From a bacterium (lineage in GTDB: Bacteria > Patescibacteriota > CPR2 > UBA1875 > CAIMLA01): a stretch of 64,000 nt of DNA. This document shows, one piece after another, positions 24 to 53,397 of the stretch. The stretch covers positions 87,275 through 151,274 of the forward strand of contig JBAXUE010000003.1 of the NCBI GenBank assembly GCA_037129835.1, given 5' to 3'. The translations under genes and the position numbers were made by a program. Numbering within the stretch: the stretch's first letter is position 1; each line of letters opens with the position of its first letter. The notes below the pieces were generated by a model, which searched no databases, was not told the DNA's origin, and saw only the letters and a list, made by a program, of their open reading frames with translations.

Positions 24-350
24 GTGGTGTCTGAAAACAAGGGTCTTTCAGAACAAAGCTTTATGCAAGAAAAAAGGGCTCGCCTTGATAGGCGTCTTGA
101 TATCCTTAGCCAATTAATTAATCCTAGCGATAGCGGACAGTCGGTCGATGAATTGTTAAAAATAGTGCGCACTTTACACAGGGGAACAAAAAGCGAAGTA
201 ACTTTAGATGGTGGTAAATATATTGAAATTGTACAAGATTATGAAGATCTAGAGGGCTTTTTACTGCAATTTAATGATTCAAATAAAATCGAATCATATC
301 GACAAGACAATTTTTCATACAGAAATTGGTTAGAAAGTGGTGAAGTATAA
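24..350 (+). CDS. hypothetical protein; the frame is open back to window position 1, so it may be 5'-truncated
   Basis: ORF with a GTG at 24 and no upstream in-frame stop to the window edge. No recognisable motif. Confidence 0.4.
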   Translation: MVSENKGLSEQSFMQEKRARLDRRLDILSQLINPSDSGQSVDELLKIVRTLHRGTKSEVTLDGGKYIEIVQDYEDLEGFLLQFNDSNKIESYRQDNFSYRNWLESGEV

Positions 351-457
351 ACTTAATTGAGGTTTTCGCGGATAACCGTTTTTTGATGATTGGTAAGCTG
401 GGTAGTATTTTCTGGCACTTTCCTCCGTTGAATATTTGATTAACAGGATTATATAAC

Positions 458-751
458 ATGGATTATACAAAGTTTATTAATAAAATCGAAGGTGAAAACA
501 GGGGAGATTTCTTGCTATTTACACTTTCAACGTGTATTTGGTGTCGTAAAACCAAGTCCTTTCTTGATAGTTTAGGGGTAGAATATGGCTATATTGATGT
601 TGACCTAGTAGATGGCGATGAAGGGGAGATGGTAATGTTGGAGATGCATAAATACAATCCCAAAACCTCTTTCCCTACGATCGTGGTTAATAAGGGCGAA
701 AAGGTTATTCTTGGTTTTGAGGAAGATCAAATTCGCGAAAGTCTTAAATAA
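458..751 (+). CDS. glutaredoxin-like / thioredoxin-fold protein (CxxC)
   Basis: Contains CIWC (CxxC), a downstream cis-Pro-like FPTI and a GF motif; ~97 aa, the usual Grx/NrdH size. Its stop overlaps the start of the next gene (taATGa). Confidence 0.65.
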   Translation: MDYTKFINKIEGENRGDFLLFTLSTCIWCRKTKSFLDSLGVEYGYIDVDLVDGDEGEMVMLEMHKYNPKTSFPTIVVNKGEKVILGFEEDQIRESLK

Positions 752-4487: not shown

Positions 4488-7286
4488 ATGAAAAGACCAA
4501 AATTTGTACTTATAGATGGTCATGCATTAATTCACCGAGCATATCATGCCATCCCACCACTCACCACCAAAAAAGGTGAGATAGTGAACGCTGTATATGG
4601 TTTTACGATGATTGTGTTAAACGTTTTACGTGATCTGAAGCCAGACTACATAGCGGTGGCGATGGATCTTCCTGGAAAAACTTTCCGTCACCATGATTTC
4701 GCGGACTATAAAGCCACAAGGAAGAAAGCGGATGATGACCTGGTAGCACAGTTTCCCCGTGTTTATGATGTTATTAATGCCTTAAATATCCCAATTTATG
4801 AACAAAAAGGCTTCGAAGCAGATGATATTATCGGATCGGCAGCAGAAAAGCTTAAAAACGACTACGAAGTGTACGTTGTTACTGGCGATCTTGATGAATT
4901 GCAACTCGTCGATGACCACGTCCACATCTACACAATGAAACGAGGATTTTCGGATATCTTTATCTATGATAAAGCAGCAGTAATGGAAAGATATGGTCTA
5001 ACTCCAGAAGAATTCGTCATTTTAAAGGCTCTCAAGGGCGATACTTCTGACAATATTCCAGGCGTCGCAGGCATCGGAGAAAAAACTGCTATCGATCTCG
5101 CATCAAAATACAAAAGTTTAGACGATTTATATGACAATTTGTATGAAATAAAGTCCTCAATTGCAAAGAAACTAGAAGACGGCAAAGAAAGTGCTTATCT
5201 CAGCTTGCATCTTTCAACAATAGTTCGTGATATCCCACTCGATATTTGCGAAGATGATTGTAAAACGCACCAATTTGACCGAGATAAAGCATTGGAATTA
5301 TTTCGTGAACTTGAGTTTAAATCATTATTAACTAGATTGCCAGTGAATAAGGACGATAAGGATATGGATTCCCGCCTACGCGGGAATGACAAGGGGGAGG
5401 GTAAGGATGACAAATATGATAATAATGGCAACATGGTAGTGAGTGAAAGCCGAGACCATTATACCAAAGAAAATTATATTCTCATTAATAATGAAGCAGA
5501 ACTAGTAAATCTAGCTAGTAAATTGTCGGCTCAGAAAATTATCGCTGTCGATACAGAGACAGATTCATTGGATACTATCTCTGCAAATCTGGTAGGAATA
5601 TCGTTTTCTTTTGAAGAAGGTAAGGCATATTATATTGCGATACTTGGTCTAGGTGGAGATACACTATCAAAGGAAACCGTTATAAGGCACTTGGATCCGA
5701 TACTTCGAGATCCGAAGGTTTCTAAAGTCGGCCATAATATCAAGTTTGATTACGAAGTACTTTTTGCAAACGGGTTTAGTTTTGAAGGTATCGTTTTTGA
5801 TACTATGGTGGCGGCATATCTGATTAATCCTAATGCAAGAGCTCAAAGATTAGACGAGCTAGCTTTCACTGAGCTTGGTATCGAGATGACGAAAATCGAT
5901 GAACTGATAGGAAAAGGTAAAGAGGAGATAACTTTTGATAAAGTGGACATCAATTCAGCTGCACTTTATGCCGCCGAAGATGCTGACATTACTTTACGCT
6001 TATACCATCATCTGCAGACAGATTTAGCAGAAGGCGGCTTCAATGAACTGATGGGCAAAATAGAGGCACCACTGATAACTGTTTTGGCTCGTGTGGAAAT
6101 GAATGGAGTAAAAATAGATTTGCCTTTGCTTTCTGATTTGTCTAAATCTTTTGGTTTAAGAATAGAAAAGCTGCAAACAGAGATTTACAAATTGGCTGGT
6201 GAAGAATTCAATATTGCCTCGCCTCTTCAAATGCAAAAAGTGCTTTATGACAACCTGGACCTTAGAAATAAAATACCATTTCCAAAAGACATAAAGAAAT
6301 TACCATCTGGCGGTTACTCGACAGGAGCAGAGCAACTGGAAAAGCTACGAGATTCTGGTCACCCAATAATAGAAAAAATTTTAGAATATAGAGAGCTTGC
6401 AAAACTAAAGAGTACGTATATCGACTCCCTGCCGAAGCTTGTTAGCTCTAAAACTGGACGGATTCACACTAGCTTTAACCAAGCTATTGTGGCAACGGGC
6501 AGACTTTCTTCTACAAATCCAAATCTCCAGAATATTCCTATTCGCACAGAGACAGGCATGCAGATACGCAAAGCATTTATTGCAGATCCCGGAAACAAAA
6601 TATTATCTGCAGATTACTCCCAGATAGAGCTACGAATTATTGCTCATATGTCAGGTGACACTGAAATGATAAAAGCCTTTAATGATGGCATAGATATCCA
6701 TACGGCGACAGCTGCCAAAGTATTTGCAGTCGATGAAAAAGATGTGACCAAAGAGATGCGTCGTACAGCGAAGATCGTGAATTTCGGAATCGTATATGGA
6801 GTTTCTGCCCATGGGCTACAGCGCCAAAGCAATCTTGAGTATGCAAGTGCTAAAGATTTTATTGATAAATATTTCGAAACATACAAAGGCGTTAAGCTTT
6901 ATCTAGACGCAGCTGTAAAAATAGCAAAAGAAAGAGGTTTCGCCGAAACTTTATTTGGGCGCAGACGGTATTTACCAGAGCTAAATAGTTCGAATTTCGC
7001 GGTTCGCGGCTCTGCAGAACGTATGGCTGCGAATATGCCGATTCAAGGGACAGCCGCAGATCTTATCAAACTTGCGATGATAGAAATAGACAAAGATTTA
7101 ACTACGTTTAGCCCTAAAACTAGGCTACTTCTTACGGTTCACGACGAGCTTGTTTTCGAAATTCCAGAAGACGAGGTCCAAAAAGTACAAGACTTTGTAA
7201 AGAAAAAGATGGAAAATGTAGTCAAGCTAGACGTGCCTGTAGTAGTAGACATCGGAGTAGGCGATAACTGGGGAGAAGCGAAATGA
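4488..7286 (+). CDS. polA: DNA polymerase I (5'-3' exonuclease + 3'-5' exonuclease + polymerase domains)
   Basis: N-terminal FEN-like domain, a 3'-5' exonuclease domain (AVDTETDSL...YAAEDAD) and the pol A motifs (RRTAKIVNFGIVYG; TVHDELVFE). It carries an in-frame palindromic element at 5366-5390. Confidence 0.95.
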   Translation: MKRPKFVLIDGHALIHRAYHAIPPLTTKKGEIVNAVYGFTMIVLNVLRDLKPDYIAVAMDLPGKTFRHHDFADYKATRKKADDDLVAQFPRVYDVINALNIPIYEQKGFEADDIIGSAAEKLKNDYEVYVVTGDLDELQLVDDHVHIYTMKRGFSDIFIYDKAAVMERYGLTPEEFVILKALKGDTSDNIPGVAGIGEKTAIDLASKYKSLDDLYDNLYEIKSSIAKKLEDGKESAYLSLHLSTIVRDIPLDICEDDCKTHQFDRDKALELFRELEFKSLLTRLPVNKDDKDMDSRLRGNDKGEGKDDKYDNNGNMVVSESRDHYTKENYILINNEAELVNLASKLSAQKIIAVDTETDSLDTISANLVGISFSFEEGKAYYIAILGLGGDTLSKETVIRHLDPILRDPKVSKVGHNIKFDYEVLFANGFSFEGIVFDTMVAAYLINPNARAQRLDELAFTELGIEMTKIDELIGKGKEEITFDKVDINSAALYAAEDADITLRLYHHLQTDLAEGGFNELMGKIEAPLITVLARVEMNGVKIDLPLLSDLSKSFGLRIEKLQTEIYKLAGEEFNIASPLQMQKVLYDNLDLRNKIPFPKDIKKLPSGGYSTGAEQLEKLRDSGHPIIEKILEYRELAKLKSTYIDSLPKLVSSKTGRIHTSFNQAIVATGRLSSTNPNLQNIPIRTETGMQIRKAFIADPGNKILSADYSQIELRIIAHMSGDTEMIKAFNDGIDIHTATAAKVFAVDEKDVTKEMRRTAKIVNFGIVYGVSAHGLQRQSNLEYASAKDFIDKYFETYKGVKLYLDAAVKIAKERGFAETLFGRRRYLPELNSSNFAVRGSAERMAANMPIQGTAADLIKLAMIEIDKDLTTFSPKTRLLLTVHDELVFEIPEDEVQKVQDFVKKKMENVVKLDVPVVVDIGVGDNWGEAK
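5366..5390. repeat. GC-rich palindromic hairpin element inserted in-frame in the polA inter-domain linker
   Basis: ggattcccgc-ctac-gcgggaatgac is a perfect 9-bp inverted repeat, nearly identical to the intergenic copy at 53425-53448. The antisense pseudo-ORF 5195-5434 reads SFPRRRESI. Confidence 0.7.
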
Positions 7287-9765: not shown

Positions 9766-10398
9766 GTGAAAGCATTAACAACAAAACAAAAGACAGTTCT
9801 CGGTTGGATAGAAGATTCTGTCCAAAAAACTGGCCAAGCCCCGACGGTTCGTGAGCTACAAGAGAGGCTTGGTTGCTCATCCCCTATGGGTGCGGTATCT
9901 CATCTTAACGCTCTTGAGGCAAAAGGATATATTACCAAAGTTGATGGCAAGGCAAGAGGTTTAATACTTAATACCGGCGATGATATCAAATCAAATGATG
10001 ATATCATACAAGTTCCGCTAGTTGGTAATGTAGCCTGCGGTATGCCTATCTGGGCTGAGGAAATGGTAGAAGAGATTATCCCCCTACCCAAGGCATTTGT
10101 ACATTATACTTCAGATGTTTTTATGCTACGTGCCCAAGGCGATTCTATGAATATGGGCGGAATCGATGATGGCGACTACGTAATCTTTCATAAACAAAAC
10201 AGTGCTGACGAGGGAGATAAAGTAGTTGTCCTGATGGGTAGTGAGGCAACAGTTAAAAAATATCGAATAGAAAAAGACAAAAAACGAGTGGTTTTCCAAC
10301 CCATGAGTGATAATCCTAATCATGCACCGATTATACCCGAGCTTGGCACATTTATGATTCAAGGTAAGGTTATCGGCGTAGTAAAGAATAATTTCTAA
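9766..10398 (+). CDS. lexA: LexA repressor (start refined to the GTG at 9766, behind an aaggagg RBS)
   Basis: Winged-helix N-terminus (TVRELQERLG...SHLNALEAKGYI) and an S24 peptidase C-terminus with the Ser in AQGDSM and a Lys in the KKY motif. Confidence 0.85.
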   Translation: MKALTTKQKTVLGWIEDSVQKTGQAPTVRELQERLGCSSPMGAVSHLNALEAKGYITKVDGKARGLILNTGDDIKSNDDIIQVPLVGNVACGMPIWAEEMVEEIIPLPKAFVHYTSDVFMLRAQGDSMNMGGIDDGDYVIFHKQNSADEGDKVVVLMGSEATVKKYRIEKDKKRVVFQPMSDNPNHAPIIPELGTFMIQGKVIGVVKNNF

Positions 10399-10402
10399 GA
10401 TT

Positions 10403-10768
10403 ATGGAAAAATTTCACGCACTCGTAATTATAAATAGTTTGACTAAGGCAGAAATATTTTCTGATTATAAATTATTAAGCAAGAAAACTGACGGAAGTTG
10501 GTTAATTTTTAAACTAGAACTAAATAATGATAACATTGATAGATTTATCAAAGATATTCAGAGGAATCTAAAAGAAGACCAGGGCTGGTATACACATCTC
10601 TACAATCAAGATGGAAGTAAATTGATAATTATCTTTAAGAACAAAGTCTTCCATACAAATTCATTAAGAGATAATTGGCAAGATGCTATAAAATATGGCG
10701 TATCTATTAGAATCCCAATAGAGCAGCTTGATTTTCGTCCAAATAACTTTGAAAACGAAAAATATTAG
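10403..10768 (+). CDS. hypothetical protein
   Basis: 121-aa ORF tightly packed between lexA and the next gene. No recognisable motif. Confidence 0.4.
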   Translation: MEKFHALVIINSLTKAEIFSDYKLLSKKTDGSWLIFKLELNNDNIDRFIKDIQRNLKEDQGWYTHLYNQDGSKLIIIFKNKVFHTNSLRDNWQDAIKYGVSIRIPIEQLDFRPNNFENEKY

Positions 10769-10780
10769 GGGGATTTATAA

Positions 10781-11191
10781 ATGAACAAAAAAATTTCATG
10801 TAAGCCAATAACTCAAGAAGATCCATTCGGTTGCGGGGTAGCTTGTACTGCACTCTTGTTAGATCAATCTTATCAAGAAACAATAAAAATGTTTAATATC
10901 AAAAAAATTGAGAATTATGGTTGCGATTGCCCCGATATATCAAAAGTTCTGAATAAGAACGGACTGGCATATAAATGGAAAAAATATACAACAGGTTTGA
11001 TACCAAGCTTTTCTGTAGTCTACCTTGGGCCAAATGACTATTACCAGGTCGGTCATTGGCTTGTCAAGTACAATGATACTTGGATGAATCCATGGGTTTC
11101 TGGCAAGACCATAAAAGAAGCTGAAGCAGGGATGGTAAATAATTTATTAGGCAAAATAACATATATAGTTTACCCATATAATAAAGAATAA
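10781..11191 (+). CDS. small papain-like (C39-like) peptidase-domain protein
   Basis: DPFGCGVACTALLL (Cys) ... QVGHWLVKY (His), the spacing typical of C39/BtrH-type cysteine peptidases. Confidence 0.4.
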   Translation: MNKKISCKPITQEDPFGCGVACTALLLDQSYQETIKMFNIKKIENYGCDCPDISKVLNKNGLAYKWKKYTTGLIPSFSVVYLGPNDYYQVGHWLVKYNDTWMNPWVSGKTIKEAEAGMVNNLLGKITYIVYPYNKE

Positions 11192-12240: not shown

Positions 12241-12855
12241 ATGAAGATAACATCGCTTGAGCCACAGGCTCATACGAAAAACCGCTTTAATATGTATGTG
12301 GATGGTAAATTTCATTCAGGTTTGCTAATTTCTACTGCGGCTTCTTTGGGACTTTATGAGAATAAAGAGGTAACGGCCTTTGAGATAGCTAATATTGACG
12401 TAGAAGAAGAATATCAGAAGTGTATGACTTCTGCCTTGCTATTAGCATCTAGAAGAATGCAATCTGAAAAAGAATATTGGCAAAAACTTGGAAGGCGCTA
12501 TGACAAGGCAGTAATTGGTACCTGCTTAGATAGATTGCGAGTACTTGGTTATGCAGACGACAAGCATTTTGCAGAGATGTGGGTAAGAGAAAGATCTCTT
12601 AACCGAGGAGTGGTGTTATTGAGGCAGGAGCTGACTCAAAAAGGAGTAGACAAACATATCGTTGAAGATTGTTTGGGCGATATTGCAGACGATTTTACTA
12701 TAGAAAGTGCTAAGTCATTGGCTTTGCGAAGATATAAACCGCAAATCGCCAGAAAAGAAAATTTTGCAAAAATAGTCGGATATTTGAACCGCCGAGGTTA
12801 TAGTTACGATACGGCAAAATCTGTATTTAATATAATTGATAAGACCACTGACTAG
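12241..12855 (+). CDS. recX: RecA regulator RecX
   Basis: Immediately downstream of recA; three-helix-repeat architecture and basic character typical of RecX. Confidence 0.7.
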   Translation: MKITSLEPQAHTKNRFNMYVDGKFHSGLLISTAASLGLYENKEVTAFEIANIDVEEEYQKCMTSALLLASRRMQSEKEYWQKLGRRYDKAVIGTCLDRLRVLGYADDKHFAEMWVRERSLNRGVVLLRQELTQKGVDKHIVEDCLGDIADDFTIESAKSLALRRYKPQIARKENFAKIVGYLNRRGYSYDTAKSVFNIIDKTTD

Positions 12856-24127: not shown

Positions 24128-24949
24128 ATGAAAAATATTTTATTAATTGATAAACAGGCTGGTTGGACAAGCTTTGATGTGGTGGCGAAGATTCGTAATG
24201 CTGTAAATCAAATAAATAAAAATCAGGGTTTACCGAAAACAAAACATGGAGTGAAGGTCGGACACGCTGGAACGCTAGACCCCTTTGCAACAGGTTTATT
24301 GATAGTTTTGGTTGGTAAAGAAACCACTGCCAAGCAAGAGATGTTTATGAAGCAAGATAAAGAATATCAAGCGACGCTTAGGCTTGGGTTCACTAGCAGT
24401 ACTGGAGACCCAGAGGGGGATATTACGTCATTTATTCCGTTGGCATCTCTGGTTCCTGAATCAAGTTCAGGACAGACTCCAGCCCAGGGATCTATCCTGT
24501 CTTCCGAAGGAGATCCTCGCGTTCGCAAGGATGACAAGCCATTTTTAGAAGATATAGAGGGTGTGTTACAGACATTTCTTGGCGAAATAGAGCAAATCCC
24601 CCCCATTTATAGCGCAATTAAGATAGATGGCAAACGAGCATACAAGCTTGCTAGGGCTGGGGAAAAAGTTGTAATGAAACCACGGCTAGTGAATATTCTG
24701 AAACTAAAGATAGACAAATACGCATACCCAGAACTGCGAGTCACTGTTAAATGTTCTTCGGGGACATACATCAGAAGCTTGGCAGAAGATATTGGTAAGA
24801 CACTTGGTTGCGGTGCCTATTTGACTGAACTCAGGCGTACAAAGATCGGCCACTACTCGATAGCAGATGCCGTAACTGTTGAGGCTGCTTTGAAAACCCT
24901 TGTTAATCCATTGAATAATGCACCTGATTGTAGTATAATTGATGCATAA
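24128..24949 (+). CDS. truB: tRNA pseudouridine(55) synthase TruB with an in-frame ~25-aa insertion; no PUA domain
   Basis: Motif II GHAGTLDPFATGLL (catalytic Asp) and EQIPPIYSAIK. The segment between LRLGFTSSTGD and EQIPP is ~25 aa longer than in canonical TruB and holds hairpin repeats. Confidence 0.9.
   Translation: MKNILLIDKQAGWTSFDVVAKIRNAVNQINKNQGLPKTKHGVKVGHAGTLDPFATGLLIVLVGKETTAKQEMFMKQDKEYQATLRLGFTSSTGDPEGDITSFIPLASLVPESSSGQTPAQGSILSSEGDPRVRKDDKPFLEDIEGVLQTFLGEIEQIPPIYSAIKIDGKRAYKLARAGEKVVMKPRLVNILKLKIDKYAYPELRVTVKCSSGTYIRSLAEDIGKTLGCGAYLTELRRTKIGHYSIADAVTVEAALKTLVNPLNNAPDCSIIDA
24455..24536. repeat. degenerate two-hairpin palindromic element inserted in-frame in truB
   Basis: ttcctgaa-tcaag-ttcagga (24455-24474) and gatcctcgc-gttc-gcaaggatgac (24512-24535). 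In reverse complement the order is hairpin A then a cttgat-loop hairpin, the same arrangement as the intergenic element at 53398-53448. Both this and the polA copy end in tgacaag. Confidence 0.6.
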
Positions 24950-32628: not shown

Positions 32629-32999
32629 ATTCTTTTTTTGGTTCTGTCAGCAAAGAAAGAAAAATGTCTTATCGTTTTGTCATTCCAAACTAGATTTGGG
32701 ATCCATGTCTAAAATATTTTAATACTTTTGTCTATCGTCACAAAAGTATCCAAAAAGACTCTTTTTCTCGCGATCAGAAAGCAGATCCGCGGTCTCAAGT
32801 GCTTATGTTTAGGTATAATTAAATTATTTTTTAACGCTCCCACGAACTCGGGTATCGTGTGTCGCCCAAAATCGGCTATAATTTTGGCAGAACCTCGCTT
32901 GTGACAGCTAACTCTATTATTTGATAAGGGAATATTGAAATTTAAATATATTTTATATCTTATTGTCAGAAAGTCTGAACTTGTGAGATAATGACCCTG

Positions 33000-42917: not shown

Positions 42918-45900
42918 ATGAAACCTAAAAAGGCTTATTTCAAGTTTCAGAAGAAAGAAGCTATTATTAGACCGTCAAAAATCGGTTCTTTTAGTGTTCA
43001 TGATTACTTTATAAAAACACAACTATTTATTTTAGAAATATTTTCTAAGCTTCATCTGGTTTTGCGCAAGCCGCACGATCAGGCTTATAAAAATATTAAA
43101 ATTTATAAAAATTATAGTGACCACCCCGCTTCTGGACCGATAAATCGCTCGGTAGCAGCCGGTTTCGTAGCTTCATTGGCGATTTTCCTAACTTTGCAAT
43201 ATGTTGTTCCAAATCTCTTTGACACCTTTAAGCCAAATAAGGCAGAAGCTTCATCAACTTCAAAACAATGGACATTAGATACAGATTTTAACAATAACAC
43301 CCCCACAACTGGTGTCGCTACCAACAGAGTTCTTGCCGTTTTGCCGGGTACTTCTTCCGTAACACTCGGTTCAAAAACAGTTACAGGTACAGGTACTGAT
43401 TTTACCACTTCGGTTAATACATATTCACCGAAAGAGGTGGCGATAAATGGTATAAGCTACGCAGTTGCGTCTGTAGAAAGCAATACTTCTCTTACATTAC
43501 GGGATAACTATCCTACAGCCACTGCTTCTGGATTAGCCTTGAGCCACAAAAGTGATACTGCGCTTCTAGGTACAGCCACATTAGTATCTGGCTCAGCTGC
43601 AGTGGTTGGTGTTGGTACAAATTTTAACACCAGTGTCAAAAAATTTGCTTCACCAATATTGATTAGAATATCGGGTACGGCCTATACGGTTTCTACGGTA
43701 ACCGACGACACACATCTTACACTCAGTGCCAATTCTGCAGTTTCTGGAGCTGGGCTACCGATTAGTTACGATAATGCTGTTGTAGGTAACAACGCAGTAT
43801 CACTGCACTCAGGTCCCGTAGCAACGACCTTGACATACGGTCTTGGTGGAAATGTGGGCAAAACAACTGCCGGTACATATTCTCTAGCGGTACCAGCGGG
43901 CATCACTGGTTTTACTGTAGATATCAAGGGCGCTGGCGGCGGCGGTGATACCGGTGGAGGGGCGGCTGGTACTGCTGGCGGGGTGACAAAGCTGTCTTAT
44001 AGTACTTACGATGCGACTGCGAACAGCGGTAGCGGTACCGGAGTGGTTGGCACGGCAAGTATCAGCGGATTTACCGGTCTGACGGCTGTAAGCGGTCAAG
44101 GTAACGCAGGAGGAGCTGGCGGTTATGGCACACCTGTTTACTATGACGGCGGTTGTCAATATGATTCCTGCGATCAACCATATGGCTGCTGGGCTCCTTA
44201 TTGGGACTACGGACCACTAGGTGCTAGCGGTGGCGCTGGTGGTAGGATTACTGGCTCTATTACTACGGCGCAAGTCGCAGGGCAGACACTATCTGTCGTT
44301 GTTGGTGCGGGCGGTGGTGGATATACAGCTGGTTCGATCGGTACAATCGTCGTAACCTATTTCACCACTGGTTATAACAGTACTGGCACGCTTTCAGGCT
44401 TAAAGATTGACTCTGGATCTAATGTAAAATCCAAGTGGAACACAGTATCTTGGGTGGGGACAACTACTGGAGCAGGGACTAATCCTATAAAGTTTCGGAC
44501 CCGGGGCTCGAATATGGCAAGCCCAACCACAGTTACTGGAAGCGCTGATACTGGATGGACGTATTGGAATAATGATGCAACTAACGTAGCTTATTACACA
44601 AGTACGGGAGCAACACTAGTAACCATCCCAACTAGATGGCTAGAAATAGAAGCTACCTTGACCACATCGGATATTACTGTTACTCCATCTTTGACTGATT
44701 TTACGATAAATTATGATACCTTAGATGCTCCTACAAACCTTGCTCAATACAAGGCAGATACTACGACGGCTATCAGTGCTAACTATACTAACGAAACTAG
44801 CTTTGTCGCCAAGGCGAATCTGGGCGTGCCACTCAAAAATTCTACACCTATCACGCCTCAGTTTGAAATCCGAACCACCGATACTGGCTGGACTGGGGCA
44901 GTAGCAGTACCGGCTGGCGTTACAGCCACTCCTACTAGCATAGTCTACACATGTACTGTTGATCCTTGTGCTGCTCTGGGAGTCCAAACGGTTGGAACCA
45001 TCACTGGTCTAACAGCTGGGACTAGCTATTATTACCGAGTTCGCACTACAGATGCCACAGGTCGGGTGTCTGGTTGGAGTGCCAGCTCTTCTTTTGTAAA
45101 TCCAGATCAGGCAGCACCTACTATTATTGCCTTCGTCAATGATGGGACAAGTGCGGACATTATATATTCATCTTCTTTGTCTCAGCTTTCTGCGAACTGG
45201 GGTGCTTCCACAGATGCAATTTCTGGTTTACAAAAATATCAATATGCCATCGGCACTACATCTGGGGGCACGAATACATTGACATGGACGGACAATGGTA
45301 CGGCTACTGCAGTGACAAAAACTGGACTATCACTTGTAGAAGGAACTACATATTATTTCACTGTTAGGGCTGTCGACAATGTTGGTAACACAAGCTTAGT
45401 TACAACTTCAAATGGTCAGCTTGTGGATGTATCGTCTCCAACGGGAACAATATCTATTAAAGATACAGAGAGTCCTTATAGTGATAATTATTCCAATGCG
45501 AAGCTCGTTAAACTTATTTTGACACCAGTAGAAACAGGCTCGGGTATGAAAGATTTCCAACTGTCTAATGACGGTGTTACATGGGGAACGGCAACAAGTA
45601 CTTTGGGAGTAGTGACAAACTCAGGAACTTGGGGGACATGGAGTGATGCCTATAATTCGACCGGATTTAGCGGTTGGTATCTAAGCGGGGCAGACGGGTC
45701 GAAGTCGGTTTATGTAAAGTATCGAGATGTAGCTTTGAATGTTTCTGGAACTCAGGGATCATATTCCCCGACAGCTTCTACGTCATGGACCATTCCTAAT
45801 GGTATTGCATCAATCAATTTTACTTTCGTTGGGGCTGGTGGTGGGGGTTGTTATGGCCCTAGATATAAACATACTGGTACTAGTGGCGGCAATGGTGGAG

Positions 45901-48900
45901 ACTCAGGAATCACAATCGGCGCCAACATCTATAAGGCGCTAGGCGGCACGGGAGCGACAGGAGAATATGATAGTGATTGTGGTATAGGCACTGATGGTGG
46001 GACTTCTTTCCCGGCCGGTTTTGTTCCGACACAAAATGTTACAGGAGGCGCAGGCAACGGTGGTCCAAATCCGGGCGATGATTATTACGCAGGTGGCCCT
46101 GGTGGCGCCGGAGGTTTATTGGCGGGTACAATTGGTGTAAGTGGCGGCAGTGCTACTATTTCTGTTGGAGCCATGGGTTCTCCAAATGGTGGCGCTGGAT
46201 CGGTTTTGATAACTTATTCTCAAAATATATCAGCCACTACCACGCTTGATACTACGGCTCCAACGGCCGCTATCACTTATTCATTATCACGTAACGTGAA
46301 GACCGGTGATGTACAGCGCATTACTGCTACATTTAATGAAGATATACTAGCAGGTACTTTACCAAAAGTGGCTATATCTGGCTCAAATACACTTGCCGCT
46401 ACAGATATGGTTAGGACAGATGCCACTCACTATTATTATGACTACACCGTAGGAGCTGGCAATGGAGCGTCAACGATCGCTTTGAGCGTGGGAACTGATC
46501 TTGCCGGTAATGTGGTAACGTCAGCCCCAACATCTGGTGCAACCTTTACCGTTGACAATGTCCTGCCAACAATTACATCAGCTACTTCAACGACCGCTAA
46601 TGGCTATTACAAGGCCGCAAATATAGTAAATGTTACAGTAAATTTCTCTGAAATCGTGTCTTCAATAGGTAGTGTTACTGTCAACTTAGATTCAGGTGGC
46701 GCTTGTAGTTTTATAATTACGAATTCTAACAGCGGTAGCTGTAATTATACAGTCGGAGCGAGCGATAATAGCTCTGACTTGAATACTAGTTCCATCTCCG
46801 GAAATATCAAAGATTTGGCTTTAAATACCTTAACCAACTTCGCTCCAGCTGCTTCTTTAGCTTCATCGAAAGCAATAGTTATCGATACCACAGCCCCAAC
46901 GGCTGCTATCACTTATTCATTATCACGTAATGTGAAGACTGGTGATGTACAGCGCATTACTGCTACATTCAATGAAGCTATGTTAGTAGGTACTTTGCCA
47001 AAAGTTGCTATATCCGGCTCAAATACACTTGCCGCTACAGATATGGTCAGGACAGATGCCACTCACTATTATTATGACTACACCGTAGGAGCTGGCAATG
47101 GAGCGTCAACGATCGCTTTGAGCGTGGGAACTGATCTTGCCGGTAATGTGGTAACATCAGCCCCAACATCTGGTGCAACCTTTACAATCGATAATATTGT
47201 ACCGACTCTCACAACGGTGACGATAGCTTCGAATAACACCATAAACCATGTGGCCAAGATGGGTAATCAAATCACACTTACAATAGTGGCTAGTGAAAGT
47301 GTTACTACACCTACTGTTATAATTGCGGGGAACTCGGCGACCGTAACGGGTACAGGAACTAACTATTCCGCAGTTTATACTATGGTAAGTGGAGATACAC
47401 AAGGGACGGTGCTATTCTCTATTTCAGCTTTTCAGGATTCAGCACTCAATACAGGATCGGTTGTAAGCACGAATACAGGTGGTAACAACATCACTTACGA
47501 TAGAACAAACCCTGATCAAATAACTATTACCAGTGTTAGTCCCGCTACAAACAATACCGGAGAGCAGACTGTCACTTGGGCAGATTATACAGATTCCGCT
47601 CCAACTTCTGGTTTTGGTAAATATGTATTACAAAGAAAGAAATCAACAGATGTGGACTTCTCAGATATAAGTCCAAGCGTAGAGATAACAAGTCAATCGA
47701 CTCATACATATTTGGACCATATAGCTCAGTCTAGTAATAGCTCTGGCACTTATTACTATCGCGTTATCGCCTATGATAGAGCTGGTAATAGTAGTAATGG
47801 GGCTGCATCTCAGGCGGTTGTTATAGATAATCAGGCACCAGCCGGTACTTTGCACATTCTTGACACAGTTAATGGGACAGATCCAAAGGCGACAAAGAAC
47901 AGCACTGTAAACCTTTCTTTCATTCTTACAGATGATTATTCCGGAGTTTCTAGCTACTCTATAGATAATGGTGATGGAAATTGGTCGGAGTCTACAGATA
48001 TCTCTAGCGATGGCCTTAGCCATAGCGGTACTTATACTGGATGGGCTCTCGTAAACCCTAGCACCGAAGGAACTAAGACGGTACGAATAAAACTTGCCGA
48101 TAAGGCTGGAAATGAAGTAACCAACATCTCTCATACTATTATCCTAGATACTACTTCACCGGACAGCATTAGCTCAGTTGTTGCTTATAGTGACGATACT
48201 CAGGAAACATCAATCTCTGAAACTGGCGATAGCCTAGGATGGTACCCTTATACTGGCCCGAATTTTAAATTTATATCTTCGGATCAAGTATCTGGAATAA
48301 AAGAATTTAAGTATTGTATCTATCGCCCGTCTTCCGAGAGCTGTGATTATACGGCCAATTCAGCGGTATCGGCTAGCCAAATAAACAATTCGAAAAGCTA
48401 TACTGGCAATGTTACATTAGAGCTTACAGACTTTGGTAATAATAATATGCAGGGGGAATTGCTCTTTAAGGTAATCGGCGTAGATTATGTTGGTAAGACT
48501 AGTGCGCCGTCGACATATACTTACAAGTTTGATAATACAGTGCCAACTTATGTTAATAATTTTTCCGCTACCCAGGGCACCTATACTGACAAGATAGTCC
48601 TTACTTGGGACAAATCTTCAAATATTACCCCAGTCGCACCGATTGAAAAATATAAAATAGAGCGGGTTCAGTCGAGCTATTACAATGGAATCAACGACAG
48701 CGATTGGACTCAGTTTATAAATTATCAGAATATCACTTGTCAGACAGCTACACCTTATGTTTGTTTAGATAAAGATGGAGTCCAGGTCGGTAATATTAGT
48801 TTAGACGGGAGTAGTTATAAATTTGAGAATAAACCTGAGGTCGATGGTATATCGTCTACCTCTACCGATGCTTCTCTCTTGTCTTCAACTAAATATATTT

Positions 48901-51900
48901 ATCGTATCAGTGCAAAAGACTATTCAAATGAAGAGTATGGACCGGTGCCCGCGAATGGTAATCAAAATCAGTTCGAGGTTTATGGCTACACCAAAGATAC
49001 CGAGAGTCCAGGGGTTTTGCCAACAGATGTGACTGCAGTAACCTGTGACGGTGCAAGTGTTCTAGCTTGTAATGATGACCTGGCCATGAGGGGCAGAAGA
49101 GTTTATGTTAGCTGGGCACCAGCAGAAGATAATATCTCAGCAATAGATTATTACGATATTTATAGAAGAGAAGGTGGCCCTAATGATCTAAACGGCTGGG
49201 ATAAAGTCGGTACGCTACCAGAAACTACGGATAACGAATTTACAAAGAGGGTATTTTACGACGACACCGTCGTAGATGCGAAATCATATTCTTACCGTAT
49301 TGTTGCGGTTGATAAGGCTAGACCATTGCCAGCGAATGCGACTGAGATAGTCCCAGGCGGTATGATTGATAATATTGAAAACGCTACCCAATCGGCAGTA
49401 TATGTTTATGATATTACACCGCCAGTAGTGCCCACTTCGTTTACTGTTCAACCCAAAGGCATTGATTGCTTTGATGTCGAGTGTACTCCGAAACAGATGG
49501 TCGGTATTAGTTGGCAAGAAACGACGGATAATACTCCAAGCAATAATATTTCGTATGAGCTGTATCGATCATTGTCAGCGACCTCGGGCTTCGGAGAAGT
49601 GGCGGCGGCGGCAACCATCTCGCCAGACAATACAGGCAAGTATTTCTATGAAGACAAGGCCTTGGATGATAGGACTACATATTATTACTACCTCAGGGTT
49701 ATTGACGGTCATGAAAATAGCGCAAATACTACGGTTATGGTAGTTACCACTGGTAATAGTTCAGCACCAACACCACCAAAAGATGTTTTAGTTTCTAATA
49801 GTGATAGTTCACTTACAGATCAAGCACATCAGCTTAGGGTCAGCTTTGTCGGTAGTTATGCAAGAGGGTTTGATTCAGTCACTAAAGAAAACGGAATCGT
49901 AGGTTATGATTCGTACATCTCGCAAACAAATATTATACCTGATATGCTTCAAGACCCAACAGACGGTACTACGAATAACTGTATTGATAACGAAACCGCC
50001 GATGACTGTTGGATAAGAATAAATAATGCTACGGTTGCAAATACCCAGACCCTTACTACACCGATCGGAGACGATTCTCATATTGTTAGAGCGTTTACTG
50101 CCGCAAATCTTACAGAAACAACACAATATTATTTCCGCATTCGTGCAGTGGACAACGGAAAAAATATTGACGGTTCAGATGCACCTCTTAAGTCACTTTT
50201 TACAGCGGTAACGCCTCTAGTTAAAAAAAGTGGTGGCTGGGAGGTTACGCGCGATCTCACTGTACCGCCGCTTCCAACTGGAGGCCTAGAGGTGAAAGTT
50301 ACTAATACTCACCCAAATACCACAGTACTTCGCAACATCGTTACTTGGAAGATTCTTAGTGAAAAACCTTTAAGAAAGAAACTACCATTTGAAATAGCTT
50401 ATAACGCCACGACGAATCCAAAAGGTTGTAAAGCGGTAGCAGTAAACGGAGTAGACTACTGCAACGATTTTTATAGCTTTGAATTATATAGAGAGGTATT
50501 GGACGTAGATAATAATGTAATATACGAAAGTTCTACCCCGATAAAGACAGAAATTAATCCTGAGACAAACTTTTATATCGATGAGATAGGTAACACAGAT
50601 CTTATCGGTGGTACGGGTGATAGCTCATTCCTTATCGATGCCAAAATAAGATATTATGTTAAAGTCGTTGATAGTTCTATCTATAACTTCAACTACCCAG
50701 ATGGCACTAGTATCAATGCACTTCCAAACAAAACCGAGAGGCAAGATTCTGGATCCACTATTATTCCTGCCAAGTCGATACCAAGCATATTGGGTTTAGT
50801 CACGGTTTCTGACATTGGTGTTTCTTCGGCGACTGTTTCGTGGACGACCAATCAATCAACAGATGCCGTAGTTGAATTTCGGAAAAAGTATAAAAATGGT
50901 AACTCAGGGGAGTTAAATGACGGTACTTATCAGGTTATCGGAGAGAATAGTAACCCTGTTATACACGTAGAAACAGAAAATCATGCCGTACAAATGTTCG
51001 GCCTTCAAGCAGAGACTGAATATGATTATCGAGTTGTTTCAAAGAATTATTTGGCGAACACAGTTTATAGAAGTGGTAATGACGTGCCAACCTTAAAGAC
51101 TAAAGGATTCACCATCACCTATTTGCCGAATCGACTATCAACTACAACTGTATCTGCAGAACTACGTTGGTCTACCAATATGCCGTCAAATTCAAATATG
51201 GTTGAGTTTAGAGAAAGCAATGGGACACAAAACGGTGCAGTGGCTGAAACGCCACTAAAAACAGAGGAAGTTACTACTTGGGCAAAAAACTGTGAAGCGA
51301 ATCCAAACTCTCAGCTTTGCTCTCATTCGGTAATTATCTCTCCTTTAAAGAAAAGTACAGAGTATACAATAAATATAGTTTCTGTTTCTCTCGACAATTA
51401 TAATACAAGCTCTGGGCTTCAGAAATTTACGACTGCAAGCTCTGATTCTAAACAGTTTACGGTTAAGCCATCTGCTTCGAATGTCGCTGAAAGAAATATT
51501 ACTGCCACTTCGGCTCAAATAGTTTTCCAGACCGCAGAGAGCACAACTGCTACTCTTTACTATGATGTTGAGAGCGGTGCTCCAACCTATGAGCCAAAAG
51601 ATTATAAGCTTACTGCTACAGACGCATTGAATAGCACTACTCATCAGATCCTCGTCGATGGACTCGAGCCGGGCAAAAAATATTATTATATTGTAAAGGT
51701 TGATAATGGGCTTCTTTCCTACACTTCCCCAGAGTCTTCGTTTACTGCGGTTCTAAAACCAAAAATATCAAATCTTAAAGTAGCCGAAGTAAAGCCATAC
51801 TCATTCCAGGTTACCTGGGAAACAAATATTGATACTGAAACGCTCATCAATTTAGGTGCGGGCTCGGCAAACTATAGCGAGAAAAGAGGCAAGCCCGGAC

Positions 51901-52451
51901 TAGTTAAGAGTCACGACCTCATGGTTGATCAACTTACTGATAACACAGAGTATCATTATCAGATATTAGCCAAAGATGACACTGGCAATGAAGTTGCCTC
52001 TAGTGACTCTATTATAAGAACACCACTAGATACAGAGGGGCCAAAGATATCTGGCGTAAAAGTAGATATCTTACCAATGGGAGAAAATGATACCAAGTCT
52101 TCGGTAATCATTTCCTGGATAACTGACAAGCCAGCCACCACCTTGGTAGAGTATGACAAAGGTGTCATCGGCGGCGATTATGGCAACCGTTCTGTAGAAG
52201 ATACTTCTCTTAATAATTCACACACCGTTATCATTAAGGGTCTTGATCCCGCTGCTTCCTATCACTATCGTATTATTTCCAAGGATAAACGAAATAATAT
52301 TACTGAATCACAGGATTATACGTTTGTTACGCCTAGTAGAGAAAAATCTATCTTACAGCTTATACTTAAATCATTTGAAGAAACATTTGCTTGGACCCAG
52401 AGATTAAACGAGTTTTTTGGGAGTTTGGGCAAGAGATTTGCCGGAAAGTAA
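42918..52451 (+). CDS. giant cell-surface protein (3177 aa): N-terminal membrane anchor, Thr/Ser/Gly-rich Ig-like repeats, Gly-rich modules, C-terminal FN3-like repeats
   Basis: Uninterrupted 9.5-kb ORF. TM helix VAAGFVASLAIFLTL near the N-terminus, so the true start may be a non-ATG codon downstream of 42918. Repeated domain boundaries of the form (V/I)DxTAPT/VDNxxP. GGxGG-rich blocks at ~43.9-44.3 kb and ~45.8-46.2 kb. Tandem ~90-100-aa FN3-like units in the last ~2 kb (e.g. VSWTTNQSTDAVVEF...YDYRV). Confidence 0.85.
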   Translation: MKPKKAYFKFQKKEAIIRPSKIGSFSVHDYFIKTQLFILEIFSKLHLVLRKPHDQAYKNIKIYKNYSDHPASGPINRSVAAGFVASLAIFLTLQYVVPNLFDTFKPNKAEASSTSKQWTLDTDFNNNTPTTGVATNRVLAVLPGTSSVTLGSKTVTGTGTDFTTSVNTYSPKEVAINGISYAVASVESNTSLTLRDNYPTATASGLALSHKSDTALLGTATLVSGSAAVVGVGTNFNTSVKKFASPILIRISGTAYTVSTVTDDTHLTLSANSAVSGAGLPISYDNAVVGNNAVSLHSGPVATTLTYGLGGNVGKTTAGTYSLAVPAGITGFTVDIKGAGGGGDTGGGAAGTAGGVTKLSYSTYDATANSGSGTGVVGTASISGFTGLTAVSGQGNAGGAGGYGTPVYYDGGCQYDSCDQPYGCWAPYWDYGPLGASGGAGGRITGSITTAQVAGQTLSVVVGAGGGGYTAGSIGTIVVTYFTTGYNSTGTLSGLKIDSGSNVKSKWNTVSWVGTTTGAGTNPIKFRTRGSNMASPTTVTGSADTGWTYWNNDATNVAYYTSTGATLVTIPTRWLEIEATLTTSDITVTPSLTDFTINYDTLDAPTNLAQYKADTTTAISANYTNETSFVAKANLGVPLKNSTPITPQFEIRTTDTGWTGAVAVPAGVTATPTSIVYTCTVDPCAALGVQTVGTITGLTAGTSYYYRVRTTDATGRVSGWSASSSFVNPDQAAPTIIAFVNDGTSADIIYSSSLSQLSANWGASTDAISGLQKYQYAIGTTSGGTNTLTWTDNGTATAVTKTGLSLVEGTTYYFTVRAVDNVGNTSLVTTSNGQLVDVSSPTGTISIKDTESPYSDNYSNAKLVKLILTPVETGSGMKDFQLSNDGVTWGTATSTLGVVTNSGTWGTWSDAYNSTGFSGWYLSGADGSKSVYVKYRDVALNVSGTQGSYSPTASTSWTIPNGIASINFTFVGAGGGGCYGPRYKHTGTSGGNGGDSGITIGANIYKALGGTGATGEYDSDCGIGTDGGTSFPAGFVPTQNVTGGAGNGGPNPGDDYYAGGPGGAGGLLAGTIGVSGGSATISVGAMGSPNGGAGSVLITYSQNISATTTLDTTAPTAAITYSLSRNVKTGDVQRITATFNEDILAGTLPKVAISGSNTLAATDMVRTDATHYYYDYTVGAGNGASTIALSVGTDLAGNVVTSAPTSGATFTVDNVLPTITSATSTTANGYYKAANIVNVTVNFSEIVSSIGSVTVNLDSGGACSFIITNSNSGSCNYTVGASDNSSDLNTSSISGNIKDLALNTLTNFAPAASLASSKAIVIDTTAPTAAITYSLSRNVKTGDVQRITATFNEAMLVGTLPKVAISGSNTLAATDMVRTDATHYYYDYTVGAGNGASTIALSVGTDLAGNVVTSAPTSGATFTIDNIVPTLTTVTIASNNTINHVAKMGNQITLTIVASESVTTPTVIIAGNSATVTGTGTNYSAVYTMVSGDTQGTVLFSISAFQDSALNTGSVVSTNTGGNNITYDRTNPDQITITSVSPATNNTGEQTVTWADYTDSAPTSGFGKYVLQRKKSTDVDFSDISPSVEITSQSTHTYLDHIAQSSNSSGTYYYRVIAYDRAGNSSNGAASQAVVIDNQAPAGTLHILDTVNGTDPKATKNSTVNLSFILTDDYSGVSSYSIDNGDGNWSESTDISSDGLSHSGTYTGWALVNPSTEGTKTVRIKLADKAGNEVTNISHTIILDTTSPDSISSVVAYSDDTQETSISETGDSLGWYPYTGPNFKFISSDQVSGIKEFKYCIYRPSSESCDYTANSAVSASQINNSKSYTGNVTLELTDFGNNNMQGELLFKVIGVDYVGKTSAPSTYTYKFDNTVPTYVNNFSATQGTYTDKIVLTWDKSSNITPVAPIEKYKIERVQSSYYNGINDSDWTQFINYQNITCQTATPYVCLDKDGVQVGNISLDGSSYKFENKPEVDGISSTSTDASLLSSTKYIYRISAKDYSNEEYGPVPANGNQNQFEVYGYTKDTESPGVLPTDVTAVTCDGASVLACNDDLAMRGRRVYVSWAPAEDNISAIDYYDIYRREGGPNDLNGWDKVGTLPETTDNEFTKRVFYDDTVVDAKSYSYRIVAVDKARPLPANATEIVPGGMIDNIENATQSAVYVYDITPPVVPTSFTVQPKGIDCFDVECTPKQMVGISWQETTDNTPSNNISYELYRSLSATSGFGEVAAAATISPDNTGKYFYEDKALDDRTTYYYYLRVIDGHENSANTTVMVVTTGNSSAPTPPKDVLVSNSDSSLTDQAHQLRVSFVGSYARGFDSVTKENGIVGYDSYISQTNIIPDMLQDPTDGTTNNCIDNETADDCWIRINNATVANTQTLTTPIGDDSHIVRAFTAANLTETTQYYFRIRAVDNGKNIDGSDAPLKSLFTAVTPLVKKSGGWEVTRDLTVPPLPTGGLEVKVTNTHPNTTVLRNIVTWKILSEKPLRKKLPFEIAYNATTNPKGCKAVAVNGVDYCNDFYSFELYREVLDVDNNVIYESSTPIKTEINPETNFYIDEIGNTDLIGGTGDSSFLIDAKIRYYVKVVDSSIYNFNYPDGTSINALPNKTERQDSGSTIIPAKSIPSILGLVTVSDIGVSSATVSWTTNQSTDAVVEFRKKYKNGNSGELNDGTYQVIGENSNPVIHVETENHAVQMFGLQAETEYDYRVVSKNYLANTVYRSGNDVPTLKTKGFTITYLPNRLSTTTVSAELRWSTNMPSNSNMVEFRESNGTQNGAVAETPLKTEEVTTWAKNCEANPNSQLCSHSVIISPLKKSTEYTINIVSVSLDNYNTSSGLQKFTTASSDSKQFTVKPSASNVAERNITATSAQIVFQTAESTTATLYYDVESGAPTYEPKDYKLTATDALNSTTHQILVDGLEPGKKYYYIVKVDNGLLSYTSPESSFTAVLKPKISNLKVAEVKPYSFQVTWETNIDTETLINLGAGSANYSEKRGKPGLVKSHDLMVDQLTDNTEYHYQILAKDDTGNEVASSDSIIRTPLDTEGPKISGVKVDILPMGENDTKSSVIISWITDKPATTLVEYDKGVIGGDYGNRSVEDTSLNNSHTVIIKGLDPAASYHYRIISKDKRNNITESQDYTFVTPSREKSILQLILKSFEETFAWTQRLNEFFGSLGKRFAGK
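46251..46550 (+). repeat. intragenic repeat copy 1 (~300 bp) inside the giant gene
   Basis: ~95% nucleotide identity to 46886-47186. It encodes TAPTAAITYSLSRNVKTGDVQRITATFNE...VTSAPTSGATFTVDN. Confidence 0.85.
46886..47186 (+). repeat. intragenic repeat copy 2 (~300 bp) inside the giant gene
   Basis: Near-identical to copy 1, with an in-frame 636-bp period. The intervening domain, and the domain following copy 2, are divergent. Confidence 0.85.
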
Positions 52452-52982: not shown

Positions 52983-53197
52983 CTGTAATTATTACTATAT
53001 CTTCTTTTTTTATAATAACTTACTCCACTTTTGCATAGCCAGGGTGGAGGCATTAACCTGTCTGTTGCAGGCAGAGACCGAGCCTCAATATTTTACTGTT
53101 CGAAGTCTGGTAGTAGTTGGCTTGAGAACTGCTCCCCACGTCATTCCTCAATCTAGTTGAGGACAGGCTCTAAACTTGATTTAGGATCTCTTTCATA

Positions 53198-53247
53198 TTG
53201 TTCGAATTCTAATGAGAACTATAGACACATGTTATGTGTTATTTTCT
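53198..53247. repeat. 50-bp AT-rich direct repeat, copy 1
   Basis: ttgttcgaattctaatgagaactatagacacatgttatgtgttattttc; repeated at 53590-53638 with ~90% identity. Confidence 0.8.
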
Positions 53248-53397
53248 TTTCAATTTTCTCTTGAAAGAAAAATGAGTTAACCTGCCTGCCGCAGGCGGGA
53301 TTCAAGAAAAATCCTTCTTCGCACCCTAGCTTCCGACGTCGCTAAAGCTATGCTGGACAAATCGGACGGACAGGTCGAACTATTTCTACTCCCCGTT

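Follow-up and report, generated by a model that had tools for sequence, protein, structure and literature searches.

How does a short hairpin come to be translated within an essential gene, and what kind of sequence is it? The question is raised by polA in a 64,000-nucleotide (64-kb) stretch of contig JBAXUE010000003.1, from a bacterium of the Candidate Phyla Radiation (CPR; Patescibacteria); the whole of this stretch is referred to below as the window. An initial annotation had described a perfect hairpin at window positions 5366-5390 whose arms match those of an intergenic element, had located it, in-frame, in the PolA linker that joins the 5'-nuclease domain to the 3'-5' exonuclease domain, and had likened it to the dispersed Rickettsia palindromic elements (RPEs). 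Here, we report that the hairpin has the sequence of a different family, that of the Neisseria Transformation Sequence (NTS) and the Ssn-related motif (SRM). [quoted passage not shown]

A translated hairpin in the PolA linker

The host gene (4488-7286, plus strand) is intact and encodes a DNA polymerase I of 932 amino acids with all three domains, which Pfam places at residues 5-265 (5_3_exonuc_N/5_3_exonuc), 330-513 (DNA_pol_A_exo1) and 548-930 (DNA_pol_A). The palindrome, GGATTCCCGC-CTAC-GCGGGAATGAC, occupies positions 5366-5390 and encodes PolA residues 294-300, in the linker between the first two domains. Its sense frame reads MDSRLRGNDKGEGKDD, which includes DSRLRGND, while one antisense frame reads SFPRRRESI; the stretch of PolA that spans the insert is DSRLRGNDKGEGK. 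The linker position and the unbroken reading frame that had been claimed are therefore borne out by the Pfam limits and by the intact 932-residue open reading frame (ORF). The description as a perfect hairpin holds for the stem-loop proper (5368-5387), which has a perfect 8-bp stem, ATTCCCGC/GCGGGAAT, and the 4-nt loop CTAC, and which accounts for 20 of the 25 nucleotides; it does not extend to the outer GG...GAC, which are unpaired. When folded as single-stranded DNA (ssDNA), the hairpin reaches -8.9 kcal/mol (z = -4.4), and none of 200 shuffled sequences was equally stable. The G+C content of the stem is 62%, compared with 37-47% in the window and approximately 39% around polA.

In an AlphaFold2 model of PolA built from a shallow alignment (mean predicted local distance difference test score, pLDDT, of 71), pLDDT falls below 50 at residues 249-324, a stretch that takes in one conserved region which is also poorly modelled. 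The model is consistent with a flexible or disordered linker. The hairpin is followed by a G-rich tail (5391-5411, plus strand; AAGGGGGAGGGTAAGGATGAC) that ends in a second ATGAC and translates to KGEGKDD. This tail probably belongs to the inserted segment, because an element in the polA linker of a relative (L116, described below) has a similar tail (GACAAGGAGAGGGGTGGTAATGAC, compared with GACAAGGGGGAGGGTAAGGATGAC in the window) and because subtracting 15 codons from the 43-residue linker leaves approximately the 30-residue baseline of close relatives. With boundaries inferred in this way, hairpin and tail would together comprise approximately 45 nt, or 15 codons.

Membership in the NTS/SRM family

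The first description of the NTS/SRM-Ssn system dates from 2025 (Chenal et al., Nat Commun 2025; PMC11893778). The 28-nt NTS, CGTCATTCCCGCGMAVGCGGGAATCYRG, encompasses the dRS3 palindrome ATTCCC-N8-GGGAAT, and the broader SRM is defined by the search pattern HGTCWYN(0-2)YYVSBRHN(0-5)WNVSBRGN(0-2)RNCYNB. SsnA is a 94-amino-acid, single-domain GIY-YIG protein whose binding to the motif is confined to ssDNA, which it cuts a few nucleotides upstream. Cleavage depends critically on the GTC 5' of the palindrome and binding on the C 3' of it; neither the reverse strand nor double-stranded DNA or RNA is a substrate (PMC11893778). In Neisseria, the NTS/Ssn interaction modulates transformation (PMC11893778).

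Read on the minus strand, the polA element is a unit at 5364-5391, TGTCATTCCCGCGTAGGCGGGAATCCAT, whose sense strand translates to (M)DSRLRGND and which scores 41.1 bits (E = 4.5e-9) with R1, a covariance model of the family that is introduced below. It agrees with the NTS consensus at 25 of 28 positions, departing from it at position 1, at one loop base and at the last base. This is more than the single mismatch to the NTS consensus that was allowed in PMC11893778, yet the unit retains the palindrome together with its GTC and its 3' C. The intergenic copy to which the initial annotation had drawn attention has arms (53426-53445) identical to those in polA and the same asymmetric flanks, G...GAC, and its minus strand matches the NTS consensus at 28 of 28 positions. 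The SRM pattern is matched at 5364-5391 and 53422-53449, both on the minus strand, whereas 100 dinucleotide shuffles gave 0.12 ± 0.32 matches. Both copies also keep the oriented flanks, with GTC directly 5' of the palindrome and C directly 3' of it. The dRS3 core, ATTCCC-N8-GGGAAT, is present in the element, and the window holds two strict copies of it. Given the agreement with the consensus (25/28 and 28/28), the match to the SRM pattern and the retention of the critical flanks, the polA element is by sequence a member of the NTS/SRM family and not an RPE.

These data bear on two other explanations. One is that the palindrome is a product of chance or of faulty assembly, as might be supposed from a stem of only 8 bp and from only two strict copies in 64 kb. 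A search for ATTCCCGC-N4-GCGGGAAT with up to three mismatches finds two matches in the window compared with 0.11 expected, and none of 100 shuffles reaches two. Identical polA DNA and protein are present in an independent Logan assembly (L003), and the protein is recorded from NCBI, JGI, ENA and Logan, indicating that the hairpin is not an assembly artefact. With matches this far above the 0.11-0.12 expected, identical flanks on the two copies, one copy identical to a published consensus, the same sequence in independent assemblies, and the same element in the same frame in the polA of a relative at 70% identity (see below), the probability of chance or artefact is practically negligible.

The other is that the element is itself a member of the RPE family. 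RPEs likewise are palindromic repeats translated in-frame in housekeeping genes (PMC10969869), and the main text of PMC11893778 includes Rickettsia in the genomes that have over 300 SRMs, which leaves room for SRM modules within some RPEs. Judged by their descriptions, the two are nevertheless set apart: RPEs are approximately 100-150 bp long and have a Rickettsia consensus, whereas the element in polA is 28 nt long (approximately 45 nt with the tail), matches the NTS/SRM and resides in a Patescibacterium. We regard membership in the RPE family as very unlikely.

The PolA linker in related bacteria

We aligned 38 PolA sequences and defined the linker as the segment between the conserved motifs FKSLL..LP and HY...NY. 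The nearest matches to the PolA of the window are 74-76% identical to it, and the more distant ones are labelled Patescibacteria or Candidatus Saccharibacteria/Saccharimonadia; these PolA and genome records agree with the CPR lineage that had been suspected. The linker is the only hypervariable part of PolA. It is 24-33 amino acids long in most sequences, 43 in the window and up to 63 elsewhere, and in many close relatives, including P0004 (76% identity), it comprises approximately 30 residues and lacks the element. The inserted block is absent from most relatives.

In four relatives (L001, L115, L116 and L117), the corresponding linker holds SRM units, for the most part arranged as convergent pairs. 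In L001 (PolA P0011, 70% identity), a plus-strand unit, GTCATTCCTGGTCGCAAGCCAGGAAC, with the parts GTCATTCCTGG...CCAGGAAC, is followed approximately 50 nt downstream by GATTCCCGCCTTCGCGGGAATGAC, which has the same NTS orientation and is read in the same frame (DSRLRGND) as the unit in the window. The linkers of L115/P0018, L116/P0021 and L117/P0022 contain convergent pairs of other SRM variants. In a neighbor-joining (NJ) tree of PolA built without the linker columns, P0018, P0021 and P0022 fall in one clade, nested among sequences with 30-residue linkers; the window and P0011 fall in another, with the 30-residue P0004 between them. This weakly resolved tree suggests that a linker insertion was gained at least two times, and possibly a third.

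Recurrence at one site might also be expected if the hairpin were a selected cis-acting structure, acting either in the mRNA, through translation pausing between domains or protection from RNase, or in DNA, for example as an NTS tag by which polA ssDNA taken up in natural transformation would become accessible to Ssn, as reported for Neisseria. The stem is perfect and far more stable than those of shuffled sequences, SRM units recur at the same places (the polA linker and one truB loop, described below) in many relatives, and the NTS/Ssn interaction does modulate transformation in Neisseria (PMC11893778). However, most close relatives, P0004 among them, do without the linker element, and the type, number and position of the elements vary, which is unexpected for a conserved regulatory site; recurrence at the same sites is explained equally well if no other loops are permissive. 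SsnA is also inactive on RNA (PMC11893778), and a terminator scan gave neither an intrinsic-terminator call nor a terminator-like tail at the hairpin. With no terminator called here and the element missing from close relatives, the data lend no support to a regulatory role, and we consider a selected structure at this position to be unlikely.

In-frame units in truB and other genes

The insertion of an NTS/SRM unit into a coding region is not confined to polA. In the window, truB (24128-24949, plus strand) contains two minus-strand SRM-like units, one at 24508-24537 (R1 30.8 bits, E = 3e-6) and, in degenerate form, another at 24448-24475 (16.6 bits, E = 0.03). They lie in an in-frame insert of approximately 30-35 amino acids (approximately 24433-24537; FIPLASLVPESSSGQTPAQGSILSSEGDPRVRKDDK) that is translated as ...LVPESSSGQ...GDPRVRKDDK.... 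When the window TruB is compared with the solved structure of Mycobacterium tuberculosis TruB (1sgv), residues 4-111 and 140-251 are matched to residues 8-101 and 100-215 of the chain, and the intervening gap of approximately 30 residues coincides exactly with the SRM units.

An alignment of 34 TruB sequences (that of the window and 33 relatives) divides into 19 without an insertion at this site and 15 with one. The inserts encode peptides of different SRM variants (RHSEFISES, CHSEPSEESR, CHPEQSEGS...SPQNDN and MDSCLRRNDK), and convergent SRM pairs are confirmed in the truB DNA of L123 and L124, the L123 pair being CGTCATTCTGAATTTATTTCAGAATC ... GATCCTGAAACGAGTTCAGGATGACG. The core of the plus-strand unit in the L123 pair recurs in an intergenic unit of L063, whose PolA is only 49% identical to that of the window. 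This shared core argues that the copies were drawn from a circulating pool rather than having evolved in situ.

Two further coding insertions were found in the relatives. In L088 (PolA 44% identical), a convergent pair at 12484-12573 is translated within the polymerase domain of PolA, directly before the QVHDEL motif, where it adds approximately 26 residues including DSRFRGND and reads ...GCHPRAMPTGRQENGDLPKRGADSRFRGNDNV.... In L123, a gene of the DHH family (597-2312) includes a translated composite of several SRM units at approximately 1745-1900 (VISTEVEKS, RHSELVSES, EIPESSSGQAL, RQVQDD). A module of this DHH insert, ATTCCTGAATCAAGTTCAGGACAG(G/A)CTC, recurs in the truB insert of the window.

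Residence in-frame is, as judged from intact ORFs from which translation is inferred, a recurrent property of the NTS/SRM family in the CPR. The comparison with Rickettsia palindromic elements made in the initial annotation is therefore apt for the behaviour, with in-frame copies in truB, in polA linkers, in the L088 polA and in the DHH gene, and fails for the identity of the element, which is NTS/SRM.

The family in Patescibacteria and the ssn genes

Approximately 1.6 Mb of relatives' DNA, consisting of polA neighbourhoods on genome and metagenome contigs, yielded 25 different units whose 8-bp stems are perfect. The YGTCAY...ATCYR flanks are common to these units and the stems vary (ATTCCCGC, ATTCCTGC, ATTCCAGC, ATTCCGGA, ATCCTGAA, ATTCTGAA, ATTGCGGG), and two-sided changes occur in six of the seven modelled pairs of this seed alignment. 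Outside the pattern used for selection, a Y recurs before GTC in 22 of the 25 seeds and after ATC in all 25. The covariance model R1 finds approximately 40 units with E<0.01 in the relatives' loci. Most of these R1/SRM units are intergenic, and many form convergent pairs (GTCAT...ATGAC) 25-200 nt apart. In the window itself, R1 detects five units at E<1e-5 plus a weaker sixth (E = 0.03), or approximately six in 64 kb. Half of the six are intragenic; their orientations are mixed, and the units are too few for a replication-strand bias to be read from them. With dozens of units in the related DNA as well, the element is indeed a dispersed repeat, as had been proposed.

We also searched for the gene of the partner nuclease. 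The first tblastn query was an Ssn-like sequence, which was validated afterwards by its match in L035 and by Pfam. The L035 homologue (271-552, minus strand) encodes 94 amino acids, has a Pfam GIY-YIG match with E = 8.6e-17 and lies on the contig of P0012 (PolA 72% identical). A second homologue, in L122 (10001-10294, plus strand), is 80% identical to that of L035 and lies on a 721-kb contig that also carries P0003 (PolA 74% identical). The proteins are 94-97 amino acids long. Published ssn genes are of the cd10448-type single-domain GIY-YIG class and are typically flanked by SRMs (PMC11893778); the relatives' genes were assigned here by Pfam.

Both ssn genes are bracketed by inverted SRMs with the same ends, CGTCATCCTGACCACAGGAAGGATCCAG and CTGGATTCTTCGC..GGCTCTGAATGAC (L035 271-630, L122 9966-10297). 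In L035, the gene is preceded by two SRMs in the same orientation, CGTCATTCCAGCGTAGGCTGGAATCCAG and CGTCATCCTGACCACAGGAAGGATCCAG, and its 3' end is overlapped by the inverted SRM CTGGATTCTTCGCACGGCTCTGAATGACAG. The closing residues of Ssn, ...DWIDLDSS, are encoded by the right-hand SRM where it runs into the 3' end of the gene. The L035 gene is directly downstream of a tRNA-synthetase gene, which by position only would be trpS (L001 has a Pfam tRNA-synt_1b gene at the equivalent position), and the L122 gene lies between pgk and tpi in a row of glycolytic genes. These differing neighbours indicate that the SRM-ssn-SRM unit resides at different loci in near relatives.

In total, 897 Ssn homologues were found at E<1e-10, some annotated as Daviesbacteria and Berkelbacteria. 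Many are on contigs of approximately 0.5-1.5 kb, the fragmentation that one would expect of a multi-copy cassette at which assemblies break. In L122, the start called for tpi (10291-11184) is the ATG within the ATGAC that ends the SRM, which gives the product a 26-residue N-terminal extension before its likely true start, MNKKMVIGNWKMN. The tpi call indicates that SRM ends can create spurious start codons and extensions in annotations. Apart from the genes in L035 and L122, no ssn was detected in the other relatives' loci by tblastn with the Ssn-like query and the L035 Ssn or by a GIY-YIG regular expression.

The linker element of L115, GTCACCCTGAGCGGTACGAAGGGTCCAGG|CCTGGATTCTTCGGTCCAACCTCAGAATGACG, consists essentially of the two cassette ends abutted. 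At the polA hairpin of the window, a candidate for a decayed left-hand unit upstream (GTGAATAAGGACGATAAGGATATGG) was rejected, its likeness by eye to the left end of the cassette being too weak.

Proposed origin of the insertion

We propose that NTS/SRM units are short oriented palindromes (5'-YGTCAY-stem-loop-stem-ATCYR-3') that would be cut as ssDNA by the small GIY-YIG protein Ssn, and that convergent pairs would represent the two ends of an SRM-ssn-SRM cassette that has lost the nuclease gene, in the manner of a MITE. In polA, a single unit with its G-rich tail (approximately 45 nt, 15 codons) would have inserted into the DNA for the disordered PolA linker. The insertion would have survived purifying selection with the frame kept, in a stop-free orientation and in a linker that tolerates extra residues; in the orientation found, two of the three frames are open. 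The encoded peptide, DSRLRGNDKGEGKDD, may be a neutral passenger. More generally, SRM units and pairs may spread by the action of Ssn or by another ssDNA-based process, and insertions in essential genes would presumably survive only if they are in-frame, free of stops and in tolerant loops. Among these steps, the insertion is real and RPE-like, while mobilisation by Ssn is what we infer from the arrangement of units and genes.

A different enzyme could be responsible. The units could be similar to repetitive extragenic palindromic (REP) sequences, moved by a tyrosine transposase of the REP-associated (RAYT) or IS200/IS605 type, or could be targets of an IS110-type recombinase, with the GIY-YIG genes as mere neighbours. 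REPs are also imperfect palindromes of 20-40 nt that are dispersed and clustered in mosaics, and a GTAG head is typical of them. The conserved head of the units described here is YGTCAY and not GTAG, and their flanks match the Ssn recognition determinants exactly. The only gene that we found bracketed by inverted units is ssn, although no systematic search for RAYT or IS110 genes was made. Transposition through ssDNA hairpins is established for IS200/IS605, the authors of PMC11893778 draw this parallel themselves, and dRS3 of Neisseria is an integration target of a phage recombinase (cited in PMC11893778). On balance, movement by an enzyme of one of these other types appears improbable to us.

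Several points weigh against our proposal of a mobile NTS/SRM unit as the origin of the polA insertion. Ssn has been shown only to cut ssDNA, and no transposition was shown (PMC11893778). No ssn was found in the 64-kb window with either tblastn query or with the GIY-YIG regular expression, and no target-site duplication was evident by eye around 53396-53450 or around the ssn cassettes. The polA copy is a solo unit with three departures from the NTS consensus and no recognisable left partner. The poor resolution of the NJ tree leaves room for a single ancient gain followed by losses in the clade of the window and P0011. Because the loci were gathered around polA, the coding insertions are biased towards that gene. 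Finally, the seeds were chosen as perfect stems, which makes their 100% pairing circular, and GTCA...TC, found in 25 of 25 seeds, was imposed by the selection pattern.

The proposal can be extended further. It is possible, and we suggest it tentatively, that SRM-ssn-SRM cassettes are mobile elements driven by the GIY-YIG ssDNA nuclease and that their gene-less derivatives repeatedly colonise the same permissive surface loops of essential proteins in Patescibacteria, namely the PolA linker, the TruB loop, a loop in the polymerase domain of PolA and the DHH protein. If this were true, SRM derivatives would steadily feed the lengthening of linkers and loops in the reduced genomes of Patescibacteria, and the presence of variant SRMs at identical protein positions would imply that the hairpin directs targeting or that dispersed units undergo copy-to-copy conversion.

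Other units in the window

The intergenic copy that shares its arms with the polA hairpin is itself half of a convergent pair. The left half is an SRM-like unit at 53396-53426 (plus strand; TTGTCATTCCGGACTTGATCCGGAATCTAGA) with an 8-bp stem and an R1 score of 44.8 bits (E = 4e-10), and the right half is the NTS unit at 53421-53450 (minus strand; CGTCATTCCCGCGAAAGCGGGAATCTAG), which accounts for the 28/28 match to the NTS and for the match to the SRM pattern. Together, the two halves fold into a double hairpin that is closed by the flanks of the pair (-19.2 kcal/mol, z = -5.5).

This pair lies in a 0.9-kb non-coding mosaic of hairpin modules (52983-53888) that holds further GTCATTCC and GGATC modules as well as GTCATTCCTCAATCTAGTTGAGGACAGGCTCT..., CCTGCCTGCCGCAGGCGGG and CATCATCCTGAG...CAGGGATCCATG. 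A 50-nt direct repeat within the mosaic (53196-53245 and 53588-53637) is 92% identical, its copies being 392 nt apart. Rfam and tRNA scans of the whole window gave no match, and thus the mosaic is not a known RNA gene. In appearance, it resembles the Neisseria intergenic mosaic elements (NIMEs) or the bacterial interspersed mosaic elements (BIMEs) of enterobacteria. Directly upstream of the mosaic is an ORF of 3177 amino acids (42918-52451) with long, near-identical internal repeats (for example, TAPTAAITYSLSRNVKTGDVQRITATFNE occurs twice); its product is presumably a surface protein.

A further intergenic SRM-like unit is present at 32677-32707 (plus strand; TTGTCATTCCAAACTAGATTTGGGATCCATG; R1 33.6 bits, E = 6e-7), between an ORF that ends at 32596 and one that starts at 32709. 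Its stem is weak (-3.2 kcal/mol) and not significant. The segment that begins with this unit (32677-32718) has at its end the 12-mer GGGATCCATGTC, which is also present in the mosaic, after a long hairpin module (53567-53580). The occurrence of this 12-mer at both places suggests a larger shared module.

Significance and relation to known systems

On its own, the polA hairpin is nothing unusual within a family that has already been described. What we consider to be new is the presence of NTS/SRM units in the CPR, their MITE-like gene-less pairs, and their repeated translation in housekeeping proteins; the recurrent insertions into the same loops and the ssn cassettes at different loci are unreported, while the repeat family itself is known. 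The ssn genes with inverted SRM ends at different loci, the gene-less pairs with the same ends and the units fixed in-frame in essential genes bear directly on how such repeats spread, and together they make it possible to test, by genomics and simple biochemistry, whether Ssn cassettes are mobile elements that have MITE-like derivatives. The concept of selfish DNA inside proteins extends with these findings from Rickettsia to the Candidate Phyla Radiation, and SRM insertions may explain part of the variation in linker and loop length among proteins of the streamlined CPR. In addition, peptides encoded by SRMs (such as DSRLRGND, RHSEFISES, SFPRRRES and VIPAKAGI) provide a signature with which insertions and spurious ORFs can be flagged in the annotation of metagenome-assembled genomes.

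Several known systems resemble the one described here. In Neisseria, dRS3 is present in hundreds of copies that flank RS repeats in NIMEs, and it is an integration target for the recombinase of filamentous phages. The core palindrome of dRS3 is identical to that of the element in polA, and the 0.9-kb mosaic of the window is NIME-like; the Neisseria elements differ in belonging to another phylum and in being described as intergenic and as a phage-recombinase target (PMC11893778). RPEs, which comprise ten families in Rickettsia, are approximately 100-150 bp long and are found in-frame in unrelated housekeeping genes at structure-compatible positions (PMC10969869). Our element, likewise, is in-frame and translated in unrelated housekeeping genes (polA, truB and those of relatives), but it is a 28-nt module with composites of approximately 60-105 nt and has a candidate partner enzyme in Ssn; the comparison with RPEs is one of descriptions only.

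With the REP/BIME-RAYT system, the units have in common that they are short palindromes, dispersed and clustered in mosaics. They differ in the absence of a GTAG head, in a GIY-YIG partner in place of a Y1 transposase (a systematic search for RAYT was not made) and in their many intragenic copies. The convergent pairs are like MITEs in sharing their ends with the ssn cassette, which the solo polA unit does not; inspection by eye showed no target-site duplication, and Ssn is not a demonstrated transposase.

The closest likeness is to the NTS/SRM-SsnA system of Neisseria, with which the element shares its sequence, its oriented GTC...C flanks, its hairpin and its dispersal, and the SRM-ssn-SRM architecture is present in near relatives. 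For that system, the authors of PMC11893778 point to an IS-like NTS-ssnA-NTS architecture and a parallel with REP/RAYT. The main text of that study, which indicates a survey of RefSeq reference genomes, makes no mention of Patescibacteria or of intragenic or in-frame copies, and we found nothing else in the literature on intragenic or in-frame SRM copies or on SRMs in Patescibacteria. The system described here thus differs from the Neisseria one in its CPR host, in the low density of its units, in the MITE-like pairs that lack a gene, and in the units that reside in-frame within essential genes.

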